Positions 24,424 to 53,769 of a stretch of DNA of 62,323 nucleotides are shown here, piece after piece; position 1 is the stretch's first letter, and each line of letters begins with the position of its first letter. Source of the DNA: an archaeon (GTDB taxonomy: Archaea > Undinarchaeota > CAZHTU01 > JBDRCC01); the NCBI GenBank assembly GCA_043822065.1, contig JBDRCC010000017.1:1-62323 (forward strand), read 5' to 3'. The notes below the pieces were generated by a model. It saw only the letters and a program-made list of their open reading frames with translations, was not told the DNA's origin and searched no databases. The position numbers and the translations under genes were made by a program.

Positions 24424-25716
24424 CTATAAAATCTTTTGGAGGAACCATTCCGGCGTGAACTTTGTCAGGTCGTCATAGGTCTGGCCAGTTCCTAAATATA
24501 ATATCGGTTTCCTGATTGTATGCTGTATCGAGATGCACGAGCCGCCCTTCGGGTCGGTGTCAGCCTTTGAGAGGATGACTGCGTCCACCCGGATGTTGTT
24601 GAACTCCTTCGCCTGTTCGGTCGCATCGTTCCCCGTCATGGCGTCACCAATGAAGATGAACAGGTCCGGCTTAATAACCCTGTCAATTTTCTTGAGCTCG
24701 TCCATCAAATTTTGGTTAGAGTGCATTCTGCCTGCAGTGTCTATCAGCACGACAGGCTTTCCGTTCGCCTTTGCGTGCTCCACGGCGTCGTAAGCCACGG
24801 CGGCGGCGTCCGAACCGTAGTTGTGCTTAACAATCTTGACTCCGAGGTTCCTTGCGTGGTGCTCAAGCTGCTCTATGCTCGCCGCCCTGAACGTGTCAGA
24901 CGCAGCAAGCACGGGTTCAAGCCCGTTTTTCTTGCAGAGCATGGCAACCTTTGCAATGGTTGTCGTCTTTCCGGTGCCGTTAATGCCAATGAATACTATC
25001 TTGAACGGCTTTTCAGAGGATTTTATCCTTTCAATGAGGTCAAATCCCTCAACCATTATCTCCCGCATTGACTTCTCAACTGCAGCTTTTATTACCTTCT
25101 CCGTCGACCCGCGGCTGATTTTGCTGCCGACGAGGGCTGACTTTATGTCTGCGACAATCTTTTCCGCAGTCTCTAGCGCAACGTCGTTCTCAAGCAGGGC
25201 CATCTGGAAGTTCCAAAGCGTGTCTTTAAGGTCGGCTTCGTCAACAGTCTTCTGTGTTATGGTCCCAAGGAACGTTTTCTTTTCAGCAGGCTGCTCCTTC
25301 TGCTTCGCGGGCGGCTCTTCCGGCTTCGACTTTGCAAAGCCGAGCTTTTCGGCGAGGGAACGCTTTTTTGCAGGGGGCTCTCGCGGCGGCTCCTCCTTGG
25401 CCGCCGGCTTTTCCAGGACTTCTGGAATAATCTTTGGAATAATGGGCTTGGGTTCGGCTGGTTTTTCTTCTTTTTTCGCAGTTCTCTCCTTCTTCGGAGG
25501 CTGGGCTTTCTTCTCAGCAGGCTTTTTTGGCTTTGGAGCTGGCGGCTTGGGCTTTTCAACATGCCTTTCCTCTGCCGCGACCTCCTTTTCGGCTTGTTTT
25601 ATTATCTCTTCATCAACCTGCCGCTCCTCTTTTGCCTCCTTGGCGACGTCCTCTTCGACCGTCCTCGAAAGGTTCTTTACAAGCCCCCTGAGCTTCTCTT
25701 TCAGCTTCCCGAACAT
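24424..25716 (-). CDS. ftsY: signal recognition particle receptor FtsY
   Basis: GINGTGKTTT, DTFRAA, DTAGR, KAD..KGG, GTGQ.YDDL; long K/E/P-rich N-terminal region. Confidence 0.96.
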   Translation of the reverse strand: MFGKLKEKLRGLVKNLSRTVEEDVAKEAKEERQVDEEIIKQAEKEVAAEERHVEKPKPPAPKPKKPAEKKAQPPKKERTAKKEEKPAEPKPIIPKIIPEVLEKPAAKEEPPREPPAKKRSLAEKLGFAKSKPEEPPAKQKEQPAEKKTFLGTITQKTVDEADLKDTLWNFQMALLENDVALETAEKIVADIKSALVGSKISRGSTEKVIKAAVEKSMREIMVEGFDLIERIKSSEKPFKIVFIGINGTGKTTTIAKVAMLCKKNGLEPVLAASDTFRAASIEQLEHHARNLGVKIVKHNYGSDAAAVAYDAVEHAKANGKPVVLIDTAGRMHSNQNLMDELKKIDRVIKPDLFIFIGDAMTGNDATEQAKEFNNIRVDAVILSKADTDPKGGSCISIQHTIRKPILYLGTGQTYDDLTKFTPEWFLQKIL

Positions 25717-41961: not shown

Positions 41962-42864
41962 ATGATACTTGTAACCGGCGGCACGGGTCTTATTGGGCGG
42001 GCTCTAGTCAAGGAGCTCATCCGCAGGGGCGAGCGCGTGCGAGTATTTAGCATTGATTCGCCCCAAGATGATGCGGCAGACTATGTCCAGGGAGATATAA
42101 CTGATTACACTGCACTGCGCAAGGCCGCAGAAAAATGCTCAGTGATATTCCACCTCGCGGCATTGGTAAGCTATGATGCACACAAGATACCCCAGGCTGA
42201 ATACGACCGCGTAAATGTTGGCGGCACCGAAAACGTGCTCAAGGTCGCAGAAGAAACTGGCGCAACAGTTGTCTTCATGAGTTCGGTTGCCGCAGGCAGG
42301 AATGACACAAAATACTCAATATCGAAAAACAAGGCTGAAAAGTTAGTGCATGATTACTCTGAAAAGGTGCGCGTAATAATCATCAGGGCAGCCCCGGTTT
42401 ACGGCTCTGAAAGCCCAAAATTTACCAAAATGATGAAATATATCGAGCATGGGCTGTTAGGGCGCATCGGCAAGGATGTTAAGACGCACCTGGTCGAGAA
42501 AGACTCCTTAGTCAAGGCGCTTTTGCTGGCATCCAAAAAAGGGAATTCTGGAGAGGTATATGTTATTGCCGATAAAAACCCCATACTTGCCTCAGAGCTT
42601 TACTCAATCATGGCAAATGGGCTTGGGGTAAAAGAGAAGCATTACCCCTACTGGGCTGCGTATCTTGCAGCAGTTTTATCTGAGCTGTACTCGTTGGCTA
42701 CCGGCAAAAAGGCGCCATTAACCAGGGATTATCTCCTCACTTTAACTATCTCGCGGGAGTATGACTTTTCAAAGGCTCAAAAAGAGCTCGGGTTTAAGCC
42801 AGCTGACACTAAAGAGGGGGCAAAAAGAATGGTCGCCTGGTACAAATTAACGAAAACGCCCTAA
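41962..42864 (+). CDS. NAD-dependent epimerase/dehydratase (extended SDR)
   Basis: ILVTGGTGLIG, FHLAA, YSISK; start revised to ATG 41962. Confidence 0.9.
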   Translation: MILVTGGTGLIGRALVKELIRRGERVRVFSIDSPQDDAADYVQGDITDYTALRKAAEKCSVIFHLAALVSYDAHKIPQAEYDRVNVGGTENVLKVAEETGATVVFMSSVAAGRNDTKYSISKNKAEKLVHDYSEKVRVIIIRAAPVYGSESPKFTKMMKYIEHGLLGRIGKDVKTHLVEKDSLVKALLLASKKGNSGEVYVIADKNPILASELYSIMANGLGVKEKHYPYWAAYLAAVLSELYSLATGKKAPLTRDYLLTLTISREYDFSKAQKELGFKPADTKEGAKRMVAWYKLTKTP

Positions 42865-44138
42865 GCGCTTACTGCCGCCACTGGCTTTGAAGGCGCCTTT
42901 GGTTTGGCTGGCTTTTTCTCGCCAAGAATTATTTTCATCGGCTTCGACTTCGGGCTCATATTCCCATGGTCGTCAAAAGAGTGGACTATCACCAAGTTCT
43001 CGCCCTTTTTCAGCTTGACGCTGGAGATGCTGAAGCTTCCGGTTTTGGACGCAAGAGCTCTCCCTGCAGAGGCACGGTTGACAAAGACCTCTACAGTCGT
43101 GCCGGGGTCTGCTTTTCCAGTAAGCGTGACGGGGGACTTGTCGAAGTAGGCAGCAACCGTTGTCTTCGGAGTTGCAAGCCTGCGCCGCTTTCTCTTTTTC
43201 TTCTTCTGCTGCTTGATCGACGTTGTCTGCGGCTTGGCCGGACGTCGCGGCTTCCTTTTTCGTTTTGGCGCTTTGGCTGGCGGCTTCTTGGCAGCTAATT
43301 TTGCCTGCTTCTTTGGCTTAGCCTTGGTCTGCCTCTTCTTCGGCTTTTTAGCTTTCGGCTTCGCCCTCTTTGTTTTTGGCTTCTTGGCTGGTTTCTTTTT
43401 CGGTTTTAGCTTCTTGGCTTTCTTTTTAGGCTTGGGTTTGGGTTTTGGCTTAGCCTTGGCTGGTTTCTTTTTCGCCTTCGGCTTTTTGACTTTCTTCGGC
43501 TTCGCTTTTTTGGCTTTAGGCTTCCTCTTTGCCCGTTCCCGACCAGCAATCTTTTCGAGCAGGGCTCGGTTCTGCTCAAGAAGAGCCTCAATTGCCTCTG
43601 ACTGCTTGTGGATGAGCATGGAGTACTTTTTTAGCTCAAAGTCTGCGTCAAACCTAGCACCGTGGATGAGCTTCTTGTTGTCCCTATTTGCCTTTTCGAG
43701 GTCGCTGACGTCTGACTTTATAGTGTCGATGTCCTGCCTAAGCTCGCCCTTAATCTCCCTTAGGACAGCAATGCTTTCTGCAAGGATTTCACGCTCCTTG
43801 GATAAGTCCTCTTTCAGGCGCCGGTCTATCTTCCTCAGCTCTGTGACAAGGATGGGCATTTTTACCTGGGTGGATGGCTGCTGCATCTCCCTAAACGCCC
43901 CGCCAAGGACGTTAAACGAATCCGAGAATACTAAGCCCTCAAAAAGCAGGTTTCCGGCATTGTCCTCAATGACGTACCTGCCCCCTCCGTACTTGCCGTG
44001 CAGGAACCTGCACAAGGAGTCAATATCTGCCACGTCTGGCGGCAGCTGGAGTATTGTGTCAATCGCAACAAGCTTTTTCTTTCTTTGGCGGATGTCTATT
44101 GTCTTTTTTGAAAGCTTTAGCGGGTAGTTAAGGTCCAT
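42861..44138 (-). CDS. hypothetical protein: coiled coil, histone-H1-like K/A/P region and C-terminal Ig-like domain
   Basis: ~125 aa dominated by K/P/A/R; C-terminal VTLTGKADPGTTVEVFVN...GENLVIVHSFDDHGN beta-sandwich pattern. Confidence 0.75.
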   Translation of the reverse strand: MDLNYPLKLSKKTIDIRQRKKKLVAIDTILQLPPDVADIDSLCRFLHGKYGGGRYVIEDNAGNLLFEGLVFSDSFNVLGGAFREMQQPSTQVKMPILVTELRKIDRRLKEDLSKEREILAESIAVLREIKGELRQDIDTIKSDVSDLEKANRDNKKLIHGARFDADFELKKYSMLIHKQSEAIEALLEQNRALLEKIAGRERAKRKPKAKKAKPKKVKKPKAKKKPAKAKPKPKPKPKKKAKKLKPKKKPAKKPKTKRAKPKAKKPKKRQTKAKPKKQAKLAAKKPPAKAPKRKRKPRRPAKPQTTSIKQQKKKKRKRRRLATPKTTVAAYFDKSPVTLTGKADPGTTVEVFVNRASAGRALASKTGSFSISSVKLKKGENLVIVHSFDDHGNMSPKSKPMKIILGEKKPAKPKAPSKPVAAVSA

Positions 44139-46384: not shown

Positions 46385-47986
46385 TTATGCGCCTAGCTTC
46401 TTGAGAAGCTTGTCAATCTTCTTCCTTTTCACGCCCTCGAACTTGTAAAGCTCTTTCTTTGGAAGCTTCTCAGCGGCTTTTAAATCCTCGAGGTATTTAT
46501 AACCTTCTTTTGCCTTTTTCTCCTTCTTCAGCCGAGCGTCTATTTTGTCCAGCACTTTTTTGTCCTCAGTTGGGTGCGGATAAAACGCATACGGCCATAT
46601 CCTCAGGTAATCCTGATACAAGTACGTAAACGCGTGGAACGGGAGCAGCAGTATGTTTATTACCAAGTAGATGAAAAGCGCGTTCGAAAGGGACGCGCTG
46701 TAAGCGAAGGATGCCCTTAAAAGCAGGAGCTGGATGAACATGTACGCGAAAAAGATGTAGCTCCGCTTTATTATGACGTTGAATGTCCAGAAGAGCTTCA
46801 CAGTCCCCCAACAGACGTTCCTCCAGAAGTGGATATAGTTGCTTACGCCCATGAGGTTATAGAATACCTTCTCAAAAATTTGGTAGGGCCATTTGCGGAA
46901 GTAGCACTGGATGTAGTGGAAACGGTAGGCTTCCCCGTCAACCGCGCTGACAAGGCCGCTCGCCCATTCAGTATCCAGGTGCACGTTCTTGACTATCGGC
47001 CGGTTAAAGTAGAGTATCTTCCAGAATGGGATATACATCAGCTCCCTGCCAGTGATTATGATGTCCTCCGGCGGCACGTTAAACCAGCTTGCAACGTACC
47101 TCTGGCCAATCAGCTTCGATTCATGCTTCTCAAGCGAGGGCTTGTAGACTGAAAAGAGCACGTTTTTGGGGAGCCACTTCGGCTTGAATATTTTGCCCAT
47201 TTTCGCGCGGAAGTCCTTGTACGTGCGGTGAATGGCCTCGTGGCTAAGCACATAATTAAGGCCATTGACTGCGATTGCGTCCTGTGGCGAAGTAAACAGA
47301 TTAAAGTATACATCCCCATCCCAGGCGCTCACTCCAAAAAAGCCTTGGTGCGAGCCTATGTACGTCGTCTTCCGCTCCGGCTTTTTAGCAACCTGGTAAG
47401 TGAACTTCCAGAAGGGCATATACACGAACTCTAGTGTCGCGATGTACATGCATGCCCAGTTATAATGCATGAGCTTCTCAAAGTAATACTTGAAGTAGTA
47501 CAGGGCCTGTTCGTAGGTTATCCGCGGCTCGTATGCGGGATACCCCTGCCACCAGGGCTGCTCGATTGACGCCTTGCCGATAAGCTGCTCGAGTTTCTCC
47601 GGCGTGACGATCTGGATGTGGGTGTTTGTCGCGGCGACCTGGGCATCTTTGGTGAAGCCGGTGTTCGTCAGGTACATGCCGTAGAACGCTTCTGCATGCT
47701 GCATTATTTTTGACATCTGGTAAACGTCGGTGTCGGTCAGCTGGTCTGCCTTGCGGTTAATCATCACCAGGATCCTGCCGAAAGGCCGTTCAATGTCGCG
47801 CTTTTCTGCGAATATGTCCGTCCGGTAAGTTATCTGGTGCTTGCCAGTCTCTGGGATATACGTCGGCTCCTGGCCCATCTCAAGGGTGGTCATCCCACCC
47901 TCGACAATGCCGACATTCCTCTGGACGTCGTAGCCGTAGATGTTAAGCATCTCTTCTGCAATGTCAAGCATTTGGTATATGTCCAT
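46385..47986 (-). CDS. membrane protein with degenerate Mrr-like restriction-endonuclease fold (paralogue B)
   Basis: YGYDVQR...DIFAEK...YLTNTGFTKDAQVAA...IQIV pattern; two E.xY.P(F/Y)W domains; 2 C-terminal TM helices. Confidence 0.7.
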   Translation of the reverse strand: MDIYQMLDIAEEMLNIYGYDVQRNVGIVEGGMTTLEMGQEPTYIPETGKHQITYRTDIFAEKRDIERPFGRILVMINRKADQLTDTDVYQMSKIMQHAEAFYGMYLTNTGFTKDAQVAATNTHIQIVTPEKLEQLIGKASIEQPWWQGYPAYEPRITYEQALYYFKYYFEKLMHYNWACMYIATLEFVYMPFWKFTYQVAKKPERKTTYIGSHQGFFGVSAWDGDVYFNLFTSPQDAIAVNGLNYVLSHEAIHRTYKDFRAKMGKIFKPKWLPKNVLFSVYKPSLEKHESKLIGQRYVASWFNVPPEDIIITGRELMYIPFWKILYFNRPIVKNVHLDTEWASGLVSAVDGEAYRFHYIQCYFRKWPYQIFEKVFYNLMGVSNYIHFWRNVCWGTVKLFWTFNVIIKRSYIFFAYMFIQLLLLRASFAYSASLSNALFIYLVINILLLPFHAFTYLYQDYLRIWPYAFYPHPTEDKKVLDKIDARLKKEKKAKEGYKYLEDLKAAEKLPKKELYKFEGVKRKKIDKLLKKLGA

Positions 47987-49683
47987 TATACTGCCTTCCT
48001 TGCGTCCTTGAGCTTCGTGTGGGCTTTTTTGTCCATGTACGCCTCGAAGCGCCGCCTAGATACGGCATCAAGCTCGCCGGCTTCGTACATTGTCTGGAGC
48101 TCGTCGAGTGCTTTGACCTTTTCCATCTCCTTTGCAGCCTTCTTCCCTATTAGTATCGCCTCTTTTTTGGTCACGAATGGGTGGCCGTACTTCTTGCCGG
48201 ACGACCCCTTGCCCCAAGGATAGAGCATTAGGTAGTCCCTCATGAGGTAAAGGAATGCATAGCCCGGGCCGATAAACACGAACAGCAGCCCGATGAACAC
48301 CAGCAGCATAATCCCTGTTTTGAAGACAAGCATCCCATAGACCATTCCCAAGAAGAGGGCAAAAAAGAGCAAGTCTATCCAGCGGTAGCTTGCGCGTATC
48401 CCGAACTTCCAGTAGAGTATGCGGTTTAGGAAGTTGTAAGTCACGCGGTTCATAAGCTTGGTGTACTTCTTTGGCCCCAGCAGGTTGACCATGTACTTCT
48501 CTGCCATCAGGAAGACAATGTTCTTCCGGAGAGGCACGTTCTTGTAAAGGTTGAAAACATCAAGCATTAGCCCGGATACCTGGAGATTTATGTACTCTAC
48601 CTCGTTCCAGGCGTTTTTTATGTATGGGAGGTTCTCAATCCTGAAGCGCCACCAGGGGAAGTAGCAAAGCTCAATCGCAGAAATCTGTATGTTCTTCGGG
48701 TCAGTGTCCCAGAAGTAGGACAGCCACTGGGTTGCGACGACCTTGGCTTCCCATTTCTCAATCGCGGGCTTGTATACCTGAAACCGGACCCCAGGCGGCA
48801 TTCCTTTCGGCTTTGAAACCTTTCCTGGGGTGCCGAATGGCGCAAAGACGAACTGCAGGTAGGCATCTCCAGGGACAAACCCCCGTACTGCGTTTTCATA
48901 CCCGCGCTTTTTGTTTTCAGGCGTGTTTGCAAGCTTCATCAGCTCTATCGGGTCATAATCCCACCAGAGGTCAATCATGCCGTCGTAGGCGTTTATTGCA
49001 AATGCATTGAAAAATGACGTGCCAAGCGGCTTGGGGCTGGCTATGTTGCCATCTGCGTCCTTTTCAATAACGCTGTAGTTGAATTTCCAGTAGGGCATAT
49101 ATGCAAGCTCGGACCAGGCAACCTTGCTTACGTCCCAGGACCTTTGGAACCATGCGATTACTGTGTGTTTTATCTTCCTAACCGCGTCGGAATATGCAAA
49201 CCTCACAGGATAGGCGTTGACTGACTGCCACCAGGGCTTCTGCGCCATCGCCTTGCCTATGAGCTGCTCTATCCGCTCAGGGGTAAAGACCTCTATATTG
49301 TTCTGTTTTGCATGCTCCGCCGCCTCGTCATCGATGCCGGTAAGCGAAAGCATGAGGCCGAGATATGAATCAGAAACTTTTCTCACCGTGTTGAGATGGG
49401 TTATTTGTGAAACATTGACCTTGGAGTTGGACCTGTTGTACATGACCACAATCCTTCCAAATGGCCGCTCGAGGTCCTTCTTCTCTGCAAAAATGTCGAC
49501 CTTGTAGATTATCGGGGCCCGCTCCTCAGTCTCGGTCTGTATGGTCTTCCCGCCGACCTCGATTTCGCGCGTCAGGTCAGCGGTTGTGACGGTCGCCCCG
49601 GAGATACCTACGTCACGTTCCACTTCGTATCCGTAAAGAATTAGCAACCTCTCTGTAAGGTCTACTAATTGCTGAATATCCAT
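47986..49683 (-). CDS. membrane protein with degenerate Mrr-like restriction-endonuclease fold (paralogue A)
   Basis: Clear paralogue of the adjacent gene (DIFAEK.D.ERPFGRI, EQLIGKA...PWWQ, YKP..EK.E.K); 2 TM helices near the C-terminus. Confidence 0.7.
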   Translation of the reverse strand: MDIQQLVDLTERLLILYGYEVERDVGISGATVTTADLTREIEVGGKTIQTETEERAPIIYKVDIFAEKKDLERPFGRIVVMYNRSNSKVNVSQITHLNTVRKVSDSYLGLMLSLTGIDDEAAEHAKQNNIEVFTPERIEQLIGKAMAQKPWWQSVNAYPVRFAYSDAVRKIKHTVIAWFQRSWDVSKVAWSELAYMPYWKFNYSVIEKDADGNIASPKPLGTSFFNAFAINAYDGMIDLWWDYDPIELMKLANTPENKKRGYENAVRGFVPGDAYLQFVFAPFGTPGKVSKPKGMPPGVRFQVYKPAIEKWEAKVVATQWLSYFWDTDPKNIQISAIELCYFPWWRFRIENLPYIKNAWNEVEYINLQVSGLMLDVFNLYKNVPLRKNIVFLMAEKYMVNLLGPKKYTKLMNRVTYNFLNRILYWKFGIRASYRWIDLLFFALFLGMVYGMLVFKTGIMLLVFIGLLFVFIGPGYAFLYLMRDYLMLYPWGKGSSGKKYGHPFVTKKEAILIGKKAAKEMEKVKALDELQTMYEAGELDAVSRRRFEAYMDKKAHTKLKDARKAV

Positions 49684-49732: not shown

Positions 49733-50068
49733 CTACTTTATCATGAGCTTGTCTTGGGGTGTCTCTACCTCTTCGATAATCTCATTGCCGGCAGCGACCT
49801 CGTCGATGCTGTGTATGACCCCGCCGGCGTCCTCAACGGCCTCTTTTACCTCTTTGTAGACTATTGCCTTGCCCTGGAGGGTAAGCTTTATGGTTTCCGT
49901 GTTCTTGTCGATTTCATAGAGCACAAGGTTAACGCCGTCAACGCCGCTAAGCTGGCAAAGGGTGTCTGCAAGCTCTATGAGTTCCGGGCTGTGCGGCTTC
50001 AGGATGTCCAGTACAAGCCTGCGTATCCTCGACTTCTTAGGTTCAGCTGATTGTCTCCGGTCTGCCAT
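49733..50068 (-). CDS. DUF211-family protein
   Basis: IRRLVLDILKPHSP, GVDGVN, GGVIHSIDEVAAG. Confidence 0.88.
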   Translation of the reverse strand: MADRRQSAEPKKSRIRRLVLDILKPHSPELIELADTLCQLSGVDGVNLVLYEIDKNTETIKLTLQGKAIVYKEVKEAVEDAGGVIHSIDEVAAGNEIIEEVETPQDKLMIK

Positions 50069-50110
50069 GATAACTCTCATAAGCTTGGTATACTTAAAAA
50101 AGGTTGCGAA

Positions 50111-51226
50111 ATGTTAACCACGAAGACAAGAGAAGGCACGACTGGGCTCATAGTCCCGGACATATCTCACTACGGAAAATCGTCACAATTTCCCCCTTCA
50201 GAAGCCCCGGTTTTTTACAACCCGGTGATGGAATTCTCAAGGACAGTGTCGGTTTGCTTCCTCAAGGGCGTTGGCGCCAAGGGCAGCCTATGCGATGCCC
50301 TTGCCGCAAGCGGGGCCAGGGGGCTGAGGTATGCAAATGAGGTTGGGGGGCTGAGGCTTACGTTCTTTGACAGGAACCCGCAAGCAGTTGCTTTGATTAA
50401 AAGAAACCTTAGAAGCTTAAAAATAAAAGCCGAAGTCCAGCGCGGGGACACAAATTCGCTTCTGTCAGGCCGGCATTGGGATATAGTCGACATCGACCCG
50501 TTTGGGACGCCTGTGCCTTTCCTTGACTCCTGCGCAAGGGCGTCTGAAAAGGTAGGAATGGTTACTGCCACAGACACGGCAAACCTGTGCGGGGTCTACC
50601 CAAAGGCCTGCTTGAGGCTGTATGGGTGCAAGCCGTTTAGGTCAGATTTTGTCCATGAGGCTGGCGTTAGGATACTCCTCGGGAAGATTGCATCCACGTA
50701 TGCCCAGCACGAGAAGGCAGTCTACCCAATCCTGACACAATCGAGCCAACACTACTTCCGCGCATTTTTTGACATTAGGCGCGGTGCAAAGAGGGCGGAT
50801 GACACGTTAAAGAATATCGGGTATATTCTTTACTGCCCAAAGTGCTTGTCAAGGGAGGTTTCTTTAGTCCCTGATAAGAAGTGCCCCTGCGGCAAGAGAT
50901 ATTTGGCATATGGCCCGCTCTGGGCAAGAGAGCTGTTTAACCAGCCCATGTGCAAAAAGATGATTGCGCCAGCCAAAGCATATGGCAAGCAGTATGAGCA
51001 GTTTTTTGCCACGGTGGCTGAAGAGGCGGGCATAAACTGCCCGTATTACAACTACCACAAGCTGAACTCCAAAATGACCTCTTCCCCCCCAAAATTCGAC
51101 CTCTTTTTGGATGCACTTAGGAAAAAAGGCTACGCAGCAGCAAAATCCCACATGGACAAGGAGCCTACATTCCGCACTGATGCCCCTGTAAAGCGGATAA
51201 AGGTAGTTTTAAAATCCCTATCCTAA
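50111..51226 (+). CDS. trm1: tRNA (guanine-26-N2)-dimethyltransferase
   Basis: [40 protein letters not shown]. Confidence 0.94.
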
Positions 51227-52501
51227 AAGGCGTTTCAATAAGCCTTTTTTCTGGGGCTTGGCAGGTTGAGCGGGTTTGGCCTTCACTGGCTTCTTTGGCG
51301 CGGCTTTTGCCTTTGCTTTTAGCTTCTTCGAAACCGCCTTTACTGGCTTCTTTGGCGCGGCTTTTGCCGCTGGCTTGGGCTTTTTTGCCTTTGCTAGTGC
51401 CTTCGGTGCGGGCTTGGCTTTCTGCTTTTTCACGGACGGTTTAATCTCGACACCAGGCAGCGGTTGCTCTTTTGGCGCGGCGGCAGGCTCTGCACCTTCA
51501 GCAGGCAGCTCTTCGCGCTCAGGCTCGCCAATCATGCCCTCTGCTTGGCCTTGAATCTTTGCCTTGAGCGTTTCAAGCTCATCAGCAGTGAGCTCCTCTT
51601 CAGTGCCTTCGGATATTTCAAGCCCAAGCTCGTCAACTAGCTCTTTGTACCTGTTCCGTATAGTGACTTCAGTAACCCCTGCAACTTCTGCAACCTCGCG
51701 CTGGGTGCGCCTTTCGTTGTGCATAGTTGCGGCGATGTATATTGCCGCGGCAGCTACGCCAGTCGGGCCCCTGCCTGAAACAAGCTCCATTGCGCCTGCC
51801 TCCTTGAGTATGTCAATCGCGGCAGACTGTATCTCGCCGCTGAGCTTGAGCGCAGAGGCAAACCGTGGGACATATTCCTCCGGTTTCGTCGGGACCATCT
51901 TTATCTGGAGCTCCCTTGTCACGAACCGGTAGGTCCTTCCGATTTCCCGCTTTTTCAGGCCGGATGCTTCAGCAATCTCATCAAGCGTCCTTGGCACACC
52001 GTATTTCCTGCATGCGATATAGACTGCGGCTGCAACGACGGATTCCATTGACCTGCCCCTGACAAGCCCCTTTTCTACGACTTGCCTATAGACAAGTGCG
52101 GCCTGCTCCTTCACGTTTTTTGGCAGGGATAAATAGGAGGATATCCTGTCAAGCTCGCTGAGCGCATACCTGAGATTCCGCTCAGTCGCGGAGGATATCT
52201 GCTGCTGCCACCTGCGCAGCCTGTAAACTTCAGCCCTCTTTTTCGGAGACAGCGTCGACAGGTCAGAGTATCCTGTCCTTCCAATCATAGTAGTAAGCCC
52301 TTTGTCATGTTTTGTTAGGGTTATTGCTGAGCCAGTCCTTTCGCGCTTTGACCTCTGCTCATGGTCAAAAGCCCTCCATTCCTGGGTTGTGTCAACAATC
52401 TTGTCCTCTATTACGAGGCCGCAATCTGCGCAGATAATCTCTGCGTGTCTCTCATCTCGCTGAATCCTTTTAGAACCGCATTCCGGGCATTGTGTAGTCA
52501 T
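51218..52501 (-). CDS. tfb: transcription initiation factor IIB with ~130-aa C-terminal extension
   Basis: CPECG zinc ribbon, EWRAF, two cyclin repeats, [13 protein letters not shown], then an acidic segment and K/A/P-rich tail. Confidence 0.96.
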
Positions 52502-52701
52502 TTCAGGTATACCTCTTTGAGCTCCATCGAAGACTTGATGACAAGATAGGGTGATTTTATGTTTCCTATCACATCAATTACCGTTCCTGCCTTCTTTCCG
52601 TCCTTGCCATAAACTGGCATGCCAATCTTCGGCGATATGCCTGTAGCGCGAACGATTAGACAACCCCGCTCGTCCTTGTGGGACACCTTAAAAGAAGGCA
52701 T
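52498..52701 (-). CDS. gar1: H/ACA RNP protein Gar1/Naf1
   Basis: [16 protein letters not shown]; canonical position upstream of tfb. Confidence 0.85.
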
Positions 52702-52722
52702 TTTTGTTATATGTTGAACAGG

Positions 52723-53769
52723 TTATTTATAAACTTTACGTAAGGTATTTATATGATGCCGACGAAGGTCGATGACCTCAGATAACAGCTTGCCAGTCTC
52801 GACCATGGTGACGGGGACTCCGGTCGCTTTTTCTATCTTGCGAATAAGCGCCTGGACCTTCGGCGTTATTTCTGACTCTTTGGTCGCACCAGTTATCTTC
52901 GGGTCATAGTGGTCGCAGAAGGTAAGTGCAATTTGGGTTGGGCCGTTGAGCATTGTTGCATATTTAAGGAGGCCATAGTCAATCTTGGAAGCTTTGCGCC
53001 GCATCCTGCCTGTAGTAACCCCGTACTCCGCAATGTTTTTCCTTATGATCTCCTCTTTGGCTATCTCAAATGGCAGGGGGCCTTCGCCCACCCTGCTTGG
53101 GACTGCCTTGACCACCATGACCACATCCTTGATGTGCTGCCAGCTGAGCCCGGCATCGTCTGCCGATGCAACTGCGGTGCAGTTGTCAGAAGTGGTAAAC
53201 GGGTAGTCTGGCGAAAGGGCAAGGGAAAGGTAGGTCCCCTGGCTGCCTTCAATTACGACGTCCTGCCCCCTGGCGCATGCGTCGTTGACCTCCTTAGCTA
53301 CGTCAGCAGTATACGGCTTGAGCTCGTCAATGTCTCTTGCCTGCTTTGCCTTGCGAAGGATAAACTGTGCGCGGGCGTAGCCTGTGCCGGACTTTGTCGA
53401 GCCGACTTTCGACGCCAGGTTCGAATCTGCTGCTTCCATCTCCTTGTACTCCGGAAGAATGACTGCGCAGCGGTAGTCCACCTTGGTCCGCCTTTCGACA
53501 CCGAACTTCTTTATCTCTTCGAAGAATTTTTGCGGGTCGACTACCACGCCGCTTCCGACGCGAAGCTGGACCTTCTTGTTGACCAGTGCAAGAGGGATCT
53601 GGTTGGTCTTTACAACAGTGTCCTTGTCAAGAAACAGCGAGTGTCCGGCGTTAGTTCCAGTGCCAGCCCGAACTGCATATTTTGCGTTGAGCTTGTTTGT
53701 CATGTGGGCGGATATCTTGCCCTTGCCAGAATCGCCCCAAAATGCGTCGATTACTATTGTTGCACCCAT
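52723..53769 (-). CDS. purA: adenylosuccinate synthetase (short archaeal type)
   Basis: WGDSGKGK, NAGHS, EGSQG, EYGVTTGRMRR. Confidence 0.95.
   Translation of the reverse strand: MGATIVIDAFWGDSGKGKISAHMTNKLNAKYAVRAGTGTNAGHSLFLDKDTVVKTNQIPLALVNKKVQLRVGSGVVVDPQKFFEEIKKFGVERRTKVDYRCAVILPEYKEMEAADSNLASKVGSTKSGTGYARAQFILRKAKQARDIDELKPYTADVAKEVNDACARGQDVVIEGSQGTYLSLALSPDYPFTTSDNCTAVASADDAGLSWQHIKDVVMVVKAVPSRVGEGPLPFEIAKEEIIRKNIAEYGVTTGRMRRKASKIDYGLLKYATMLNGPTQIALTFCDHYDPKITGATKESEITPKVQALIRKIEKATGVPVTMVETGKLLSEVIDLRRHHINTLRKVYK

Follow-up and report, generated by a model that had tools for sequence, protein, structure and literature searches.

What does a tail of 132 residues do on a general transcription initiation factor? 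The question is raised by a gene for transcription factor B (TFB) in a 62,323-nt stretch of DNA, the whole of which is referred to below as the window (positions 1 to 62,323 of the forward strand of contig JBDRCC010000017.1, assembly GCA_043822065.1). The window derives from an archaeon of the phylum Undinarchaeota, hereafter the host, whose genome is designated G000. The preliminary description of this DNA had presented the appendage as an H1-like tail closing in a MinD-type membrane-targeting helix, and had suggested that the basal factor may be tethered to the membrane or bind DNA non-specifically, linking transcription initiation to the cell envelope. As far as can be read from the sequences, the charge layout of the tail is common to the clade whereas the tail sequence is not, and the terminal decapeptide is confined to the host among all sequences retrieved. 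With some reserve, we favor the interpretation that the tail is a clade-specific, disordered, H1-like arm that would bind DNA non-specifically next to the helix-turn-helix reading the B recognition element (BRE).

An acidic and then polycationic tail follows the TFB core

The TFB core spans residues 1–295 and 132 residues lie beyond it (nt 51616–51221). This count agrees with the approximately 130 extra residues of the preliminary description, whose interval of 51218–51615 corresponds to the tail plus the stop codon. The gene and the parts of its tail are as follows.

51218..52501, minus strand: tfb, an open reading frame (ORF) of 427 codons plus stop, with Pfam matches to Zn_Ribbon_TF and twice to TFIIB
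51467..51616, minus strand: acidic tail segment, residues 296–345, 28% E, net charge −11
51533..51586, minus strand: predicted amphipathic acidic helix, residues 306–323 (AlphaFold2; block 311–320 with a mean predicted local distance difference test score, pLDDT, of 86)
51251..51466, minus strand: K/A/P-rich basic segment, residues 346–417, 33% K, 24% A, 19% P, net charge +23
51279..51385, minus strand: duplication in the basic segment, 50 nt per copy at a spacing of 57 nt and with 84% identity, encoding an 11-residue peptide twice
51221..51250, minus strand: terminal decapeptide, residues 418–427, net charge +4, sharing 8 of 10 residues with the end of E. coli K-12 MinD
51245..51250, no strand assigned: run of A6 (minus) or T6 (plus) that sets the frame of the last ten tfb codons

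The acidic segment (net −11), the K/A/P-rich segment (net +23) and the duplicated peptide (residues 379–389 and 398–408) were all recovered as first described. The DNA copies of the repeat occupy 51279–51328 and 51336–51385, and because their 57-nt spacing equals 19 codons the duplication preserves the reading frame. In the first 33 nt, reported earlier as a near-perfect repeat, we found a single synonymous difference, GTG versus GTA, both encoding Val. AlphaFold2, supplied with a 27-sequence alignment, returned a confident TFB core (pLDDT mostly >87), while residues 329–417 scored below 50 throughout, single residues excepted, and are predicted to be disordered.

The likeness to linker histone H1 is real, albeit by composition only. 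With the C-terminal domain of H1 the tail shares approximately 76% K+A+P, short repeats of the AAPKKP type, predicted disorder and a strong positive charge, and it thus has the make-up of an H1-type disordered K/A/P-rich C-terminal domain. Bacterial H1-like K/A/P tails are found on mycobacterial HupB and Pseudomonas AlgP. Unlike H1 and HU, however, TFB has neither a linker-histone globular domain nor an HU fold and no detectable sequence relationship to either, and an acidic block precedes its basic segment; the globular winged-helix family (Pfam Linker_histone) gave no match in TFB at E≤0.01. Likewise, no Pfam family covered residues 296–427 at E≤0.01, residues 340–427 gave zero matches at E≤0.001 among 7998 scored candidates, the ESM-Atlas held no usable match for residues 296–427, and the AT-hook core RGRP does not occur in these same residues. 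Gene fusion or a missed stop codon was ruled out, since the tail is in frame and stop-free both in the host and in relatives assembled independently. We also considered whether the C-terminus could be a PIP-box or MIM-type motif and rejected this, as by eye it fits neither consensus pattern.

The charge layout is kept among close orthologues

Nine complete C-termini of close orthologues were available for comparison: six database proteins (P0001–P0006), the TFBs of two genomes assigned to the same order (G001, locus L002, and G002, locus L031) and one metagenome locus (L067). Their core identity ranges from approximately 81 to 88%, and their assemblies are independent of one another. In 9/9 of these C-termini, or 10/10 with the host included, the tail runs from an acidic stretch into a K-rich end, and because all nine orthologues show this layout it is taken to be clade-wide. 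It had been proposed beforehand that conservation be checked among orthologues, and in this respect the acidic-basic tail was retained (9/9) and the terminal helix was not (0/9 C-termini; 1/17 genomes).

Length and sequence vary widely within this common layout. Seven of the tails measure 64–98 aa (P0001, P0003–P0006, L067 and G002) and two measure 32 aa (P0002 and G001), so that the range with the host included is 32 to 132 aa. The tails end in KKPGKK, KKKGKK, KKKGKQ, KKKK (P0005, P0006 and L067), PRKRK or RIKAAT (P0002 and G001), and their sequences are mutually unalignable. The nearest relative, L066 from a metagenome scan (89% core identity), begins an acidic, proline-rich tail, but its contig ends 33 residues in. 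A short-fragment search with residues 250–427 revealed no closer tail, the best 120 of 794 matches covering at most 30% of the query, in the conserved core. By its composition, the acidic-then-basic tail of the closest orthologues fits an arm that would bind a polyanion such as DNA non-specifically.

The tail extends the single TFB of the host

The core domains of TFB and the genes flanking it were located as follows.

52367..52492, minus strand: Zn ribbon, residues 4–45 (Pfam PF08271, E 1.9e-16)
51920..52180, minus strand: first cyclin (TFIIB) repeat (PF00382 match placed on the genome)
51632..51895, minus strand: second cyclin repeat with the C-terminal helix-turn-helix (PF00382 match)
52498..52701, minus strand: gar1, 67 aa, directly upstream of tfb, its stop overlapping the tfb start (ATGA; Pfam Gar1, E 1.9e-05)
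50051..51226, plus strand: trm1, a tRNA m2,2G methyltransferase, convergent with tfb (Pfam TRM, E 3.4e-88)

Membership in the archaeal TFB/TFIIB family is clear from the N-terminal Zn ribbon, the two cyclin-fold repeats and a full-length match above the curated cut-off, the NCBIfam TFB model PRK00423 scoring 442.9 bits against a cut-off of 384 over residues 3–297. The two Pfam TFIIB cyclin repeats extend up to residue 290, and weak Sigma70_r4 and helix-turn-helix matches fall on residues 258–288. The protein shares with canonical archaeal TFB (~300 aa) the Zn ribbon, the linker, both cyclin repeats, the C-terminal helix-turn-helix and an upstream gar1, and it is 60–70% identical to the TFBs of many archaea; it differs from them by its 132 extra C-terminal residues. 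Protein and family searches of the host genome (1.03 Mb in 22 contigs, 82% complete) returned this tfb as the sole TFB gene, together with one TBP gene at contig C22, 8958–9488. Judged by its domains and family matches, the host protein is the single, functional TFB of an Undinarchaeota (DPANN) archaeon.

These results also bear out the suggestion that this is the main TFB in the usual gar1–tfb position: a single TFB was found and gar1 overlaps the start of tfb. The Gar1 match itself scores 24.8 bits, under the curated cut-off of 29.3. At other loci a Gar1-like ORF was found 5' of tfb in 4 of the 24 tested, from three distinct records that include G001 (loci L002 and L036) and L066; in the same test, besides G001 and L066, two of the gar1–tfb loci outside the host belonged to more distant archaea. 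Misses at the remaining loci carry little weight because the query is a short, divergent protein. On the other side, the 3' ends of trm1 and tfb overlap by 9 nt. The convergent tfb–trm1 pair is conserved across Undinarchaeota loci, and the tail fills the gap between both genes.

Upstream of gar1, TTTATAAATA was noticed by eye at window positions 52720–52735 (minus strand), overlapping the purA stop and approximately 25 nt 5' of the gar1 start codon; it may serve as the TATA box of a gar1–tfb transcript without a leader.

The terminal decapeptide resembles the membrane-targeting end of MinD

Translation of the RefSeq record shows that E. coli K-12 MinD ends in EEKKGFLKRLFGG, which confirms the end KKGFLKRLFGG given in the preliminary description. 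The TFB decapeptide matches it in 8 of 10 residues, in its extreme C-terminal position and in its physical values, and both mismatches are F-to-L. Its hydrophobic moment (muH 0.45), mean hydrophobicity (H 0.28) and charge (z +4) are close to those of KKGFLKRLFGG (muH 0.41, H 0.27, z +4), and AlphaFold2 places a helix at residues 421–426, though at low confidence (block pLDDT 56). The end thus has the form expected of a MinD-type sequence, namely a short amphipathic C-terminal helix whose large hydrophobic residues come in pairs with basic ones on either side, and the resemblance pointed out earlier is confirmed. By these values the decapeptide is physically equivalent to the MinD membrane-targeting helix, and it is a lineage-specific addition. 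Unlike in MinD, the TFB helix is attached to no dimerizing ATPase, as no ParA/MinD domain with a deviant Walker-A motif was found in TFB by Pfam or NCBIfam, and any membrane binding here is putative.

Conservation separates the two proteins further. A paired-hydrophobic amphipathic end was seen in 0/9 of the close orthologue C-termini, and because it is not conserved the MinD-like end cannot characterize the clade as a whole. The membrane-targeting part of the preliminary description, for which an unconserved terminal helix in close relatives had been named beforehand as counter-evidence, is not supported by this comparison. Across the phylum sample, the back-translated motif matched 1 of 17 Undinarchaeota genomes, at tfb itself, and a reversed control pattern matched none. 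In the host genome the strict motif occurs in 1/5648 ORFs of at least 50 aa, and a looser C-terminal pattern in 4/1127 crude gene calls. Amphipathicity as such is ordinary, with the TFB end ranking 312/1127 among C-termini by best window and standing at index 678 in the sorted list of the same 1127 by plain 10-residue moment.

The host also encodes an archaeal-type MinD (G000 contig C15, 3812–4591, plus strand; TIGR01969, 231 bits versus a cut-off of 201.75). It ends in the amphipathic MKRFFAKLFRRG, beyond the ATPase profile, which stops at residue 248 of 259. In this DPANN genome the end probably serves as a membrane-targeting helix, and because the host's own MinD ends in it, MinD-like helices appear to be in use in this organism.

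The reading of the decapeptide hangs on the A6 run. Past it, one alternative frame reads KKAY and then a stop, and in the other the protein would close with 27 unrelated residues. Read on the plus strand, the run is a T6 that sits 19–24 nt after the trm1 stop, behind a possible 5-bp AAGGC/GCCTT stem with a 10-nt loop, which was seen by eye and is absent from the listing of the stem-loop scan. Because of this placement after the trm1 stop with a possible stem, the T6 tract probably belongs to the terminator of trm1. The decapeptide may then be a by-product of the tfb frame entering the trm1 terminator region, as a neutral extension. Alternatively, together with the polybasic stretch it may confer a weak affinity for anionic lipids or for another partner.

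Extensions on other TFBs

Long C-terminal tails are rare among TFBs. When the best 120 TFB matches were examined, 119 could be parsed, of which 6 carry at least 20 residues past the core, all of them from this clade, and 113 carry fewer than 20. Within the same 119, N-terminal extensions of at least 20 residues were present in 33, most of them mixed K/E. Strongly basic N-terminal extensions (+9 to +15; 33–57 residues before the Zn ribbon) were found on P0020, P0025, P0026, P0028, P0037 and P0043, four of them Undinarchaeota-like at approximately 70% identity and two at 62%, and these six have no C-terminal tail. In the phylum sample, 16 of 17 genomes gave a TFB match, and TFB ORFs from outside the window's order measured 302–328 aa with one exception of 362 aa, in which the extension is N-terminal.

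A more diverse sample consisted of 150 representatives at 50% identity, in which the motif parse worked for 91/150. We inspected 25 long C-terminal extensions, 8 identified by the motif parse (K+R at most 21%) and 17 by match coordinates (K at most 13%). Most of those readable by eye or with Pfam turned out to be further domains such as cyclin repeats, TBP, C2H2 fingers or a GTPase. For example, Pfam placed a complete TBP, a small GTPase-like domain, C2H2 fingers and a third cyclin repeat after TFB in P0169, P0201, P0239 and P0159, proteins that may be true fusions or gene-calling chimeras.

The closest parallel came from an Altiarchaeota-like metagenome-assembled genome (G030; loci L032 and L108), the TFB of which carries a 92-aa, +36 C-terminal tail (residues ~311–402) with four RGRP motifs. 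Like that of the host, it is a long basic tail directly following the second cyclin repeat; unlike it, the tail is R/K/P-rich and AT-hook-like, with no acidic block and no amphipathic end, on a core of 49% identity. This low core identity points to an independent origin. The Pfam listing shows no AT-hook family on the G030 protein, and among the 45 parsed of 79 loci around G030 only this TFB has a long tail. Three Aenigmatarchaeota-type loci have TFB tails of 21–27 residues ending in K/R runs. By analogy, the presence of DNA-binding modules (TBP, zinc fingers, RGRP) at the same end of other TFBs fits the logic of a DNA-binding arm. No description of lysine-rich tails on archaeal TFB was found in titles and abstracts of the literature.

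Other features of the window and of the host genome

A 425-aa protein at window positions 42861–44138 (minus strand) contains a K/P-rich run of approximately 150 residues, with a tandem DNA repeat of period 72 at 43354–43524, followed by a bacterial Ig-like domain (Big_6, E 4.4e-08). At 47986–49683 (minus strand) lies a gene for a protein of 565 aa, which weakly matches the restriction-endonuclease-like Mrr_cat close to its N-terminus (E 3e-05) and has hydrophobic stretches towards its C-terminus.

Regarding chromatin proteins, no gene for the histone fold PF00808 was detected in G000 (82% complete), G001 and three genomes from a single family with tail-less TFB. The fold is present in 12/17 Undinarchaeota genomes, including the long-tailed G002, and Alba is present in G000. 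A tie between the presence of the tail and the loss of histones was ruled out, since PF00808 occurs in G002 and is missing from the three tail-less-TFB genomes.

Discussion

In solved archaeal TBP–TFB–DNA complexes, TFB recognizes the BRE, which lies upstream of the TATA box, through its C-terminal helix-turn-helix. Because the tail exits at residue 295, directly after this helix-turn-helix, its polycation would be positioned on flanking promoter DNA. According to the interpretation that we favor, the tail would work as a charge block in which an acidic spacer precedes a lysine/alanine/proline polycation. The +23 segment would bind DNA non-specifically in the manner of the H1 C-terminal domain or other basic arms, so that TFB would bind DNA more tightly and stay on it longer. 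The acidic segment may be a mere spacer, or an intramolecular counter-charge that is displaced upon DNA binding. The tail would grow and change by in-frame slippage and duplication, and this mode of growth would explain why its composition and layout are kept while its sequence is not.

Several observations weigh against a DNA-binding arm. The database proteins P0001–P0006 were placed in the clade by identity alone. The lineage of G001 and P0002 has a tail of only 32 aa and other Undinarchaeota families have none, from which it follows that TFB as such can function without the tail. No homologue of the tail was detected and it belongs to no family, which leaves it without a link to any DNA-binding module that has been tested. 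Histone-fold presence or absence does not track the tails. An all-ORF screen also revealed low-complexity K/A/P/E-rich tails on S3, L7Ae, S24e, a KOW-domain protein and Rpo7, and a similar region on FtsY, there at the N-terminus (tailed proteins at G000 contig C7, 53005–53895, 63363–63719, 88516–89076, 98630–99289 and 99461–99946, and at window 24424–25716, minus strand). The tails of S3, L7Ae, Rpo7 and S24e are C-terminal and 70–110 residues long, and the same screen found a K/A/P-rich tail on a 142-aa protein without a family. Such tails look like a proteome-wide habit of the lineage, and that of TFB may be one case of a general drift to low-complexity extensions. Most of the others are of mixed K/E/A/P composition, the TFB basic block being more strongly cationic.

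The main rival to the DNA-binding arm takes this drift as a sufficient cause: neutral low-complexity growth through slippage and compositional drift in the genome of a small-population symbiont, tolerated at a free C-terminus in the tfb–trm1 gap and of no specific use to TFB. We regard this as rather unlikely, though as deserving serious consideration. Similar K/A/P/E tails on unrelated housekeeping proteins and on the 425-aa protein of the window are what it would lead one to expect, and the same can be said of an unconserved tail sequence with lengths of 32 to 132 aa, of the recent duplication and of a tail that occupies exactly the room left before the convergent trm1. Drift alone, however, is not expected to keep the same acidic-first, basic-last order in 10/10 tails. 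The basic block of TFB (+23 over 72 aa) is also far more basic than the mixed K/E tails of ribosomal proteins, and basic TFB extensions recur in separate lineages at either end of the protein. A narrower doubt concerns the decapeptide only, which could stem from a homopolymer-length error or a strain-specific indel, the true protein ending soon after the K-run. The decapeptide does begin in the A6 run, and the frame that stops after KKAY resembles the K-run ends of the relatives. Six-base homopolymers are nevertheless rarely miscalled in short-read assemblies, the assembled frame stops cleanly 9 nt inside trm1 and nothing in the data shows an error, so that we consider an artefact very improbable.

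The idea of a membrane tether holds that the polybasic stretch and the terminal amphipathic helix anchor the sole TFB reversibly, either sequestering it or siting initiation at the envelope. A polybasic run beside an amphipathic helix is a common peripheral-membrane signal, and in TFB the two adjoin each other. The tether draws further support from the 8/10 identity to the E. coli K-12 MinD end at the same extreme C-terminal place, with equal hydrophobic moment, mean hydrophobicity and charge, from the MKRFFAKLFRRG end of the host MinD itself, from the rarity of the strict motif (1/5648 ORFs) and from the AlphaFold2 helix at 421–426. A membrane-resident protein of the TFIIB family has a precedent, since the plant TFIIB-related protein AtBRP1 (pBrp) resides on the plastid envelope, according to a review (PMC7865254). 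It is the sole precedent found for a TFIIB-family factor on a membrane surface, and it differs from the host TFB in being a eukaryotic paralogue and not the sole general factor. On the other hand, the motif is missing from 9/9 close orthologue C-termini and from 16/17 Undinarchaeota genomes, the amphipathicity is ordinary (rank 312/1127), the helix is modeled at low confidence (pLDDT ~56) and the decapeptide frame hangs on the A6 run, the adjacent frame ending after KKAY. As reported in PMC8155659, a single MinD helix is too weak for significant membrane binding and MinD needs ATP-dependent dimerization; TFB lacks a dimerizing ATPase to make its helix bivalent. For a tail of +27, DNA would also be the more abundant polyanion. 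With the helix unconserved, no dimerizing ATPase and an A6-dependent frame, the link between initiation and the envelope is a lineage-specific possibility, and we judge the tether improbable. That a leash of approximately 120 residues keeps the sole initiation factor of an ectosymbiont-type archaeon at the membrane, or lets it cycle there, appears slightly less probable still. In that case, promoter loading would take place at the envelope or be gated by release, and this TFB would be a prokaryotic equivalent of transcription factors sequestered at membranes. Should the MinD-like end indeed act as a membrane anchor, that would be remarkable.

What is unusual here is a clade-specific appendage on an otherwise clear member of the TFB family. 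In archaea, TFB fixes promoter polarity and recruits RNA polymerase, and its C-terminus normally stops just past the BRE-reading helix. An acidic-polycationic tail carried clade-wide by the sole TFB suggests a built-in, sequence-independent grip of the general factor on DNA. With other DPANN lineages showing basic N-terminal tails or an RGRP-rich C-terminal tail, such extensions could matter for promoter recognition in reduced genomes.

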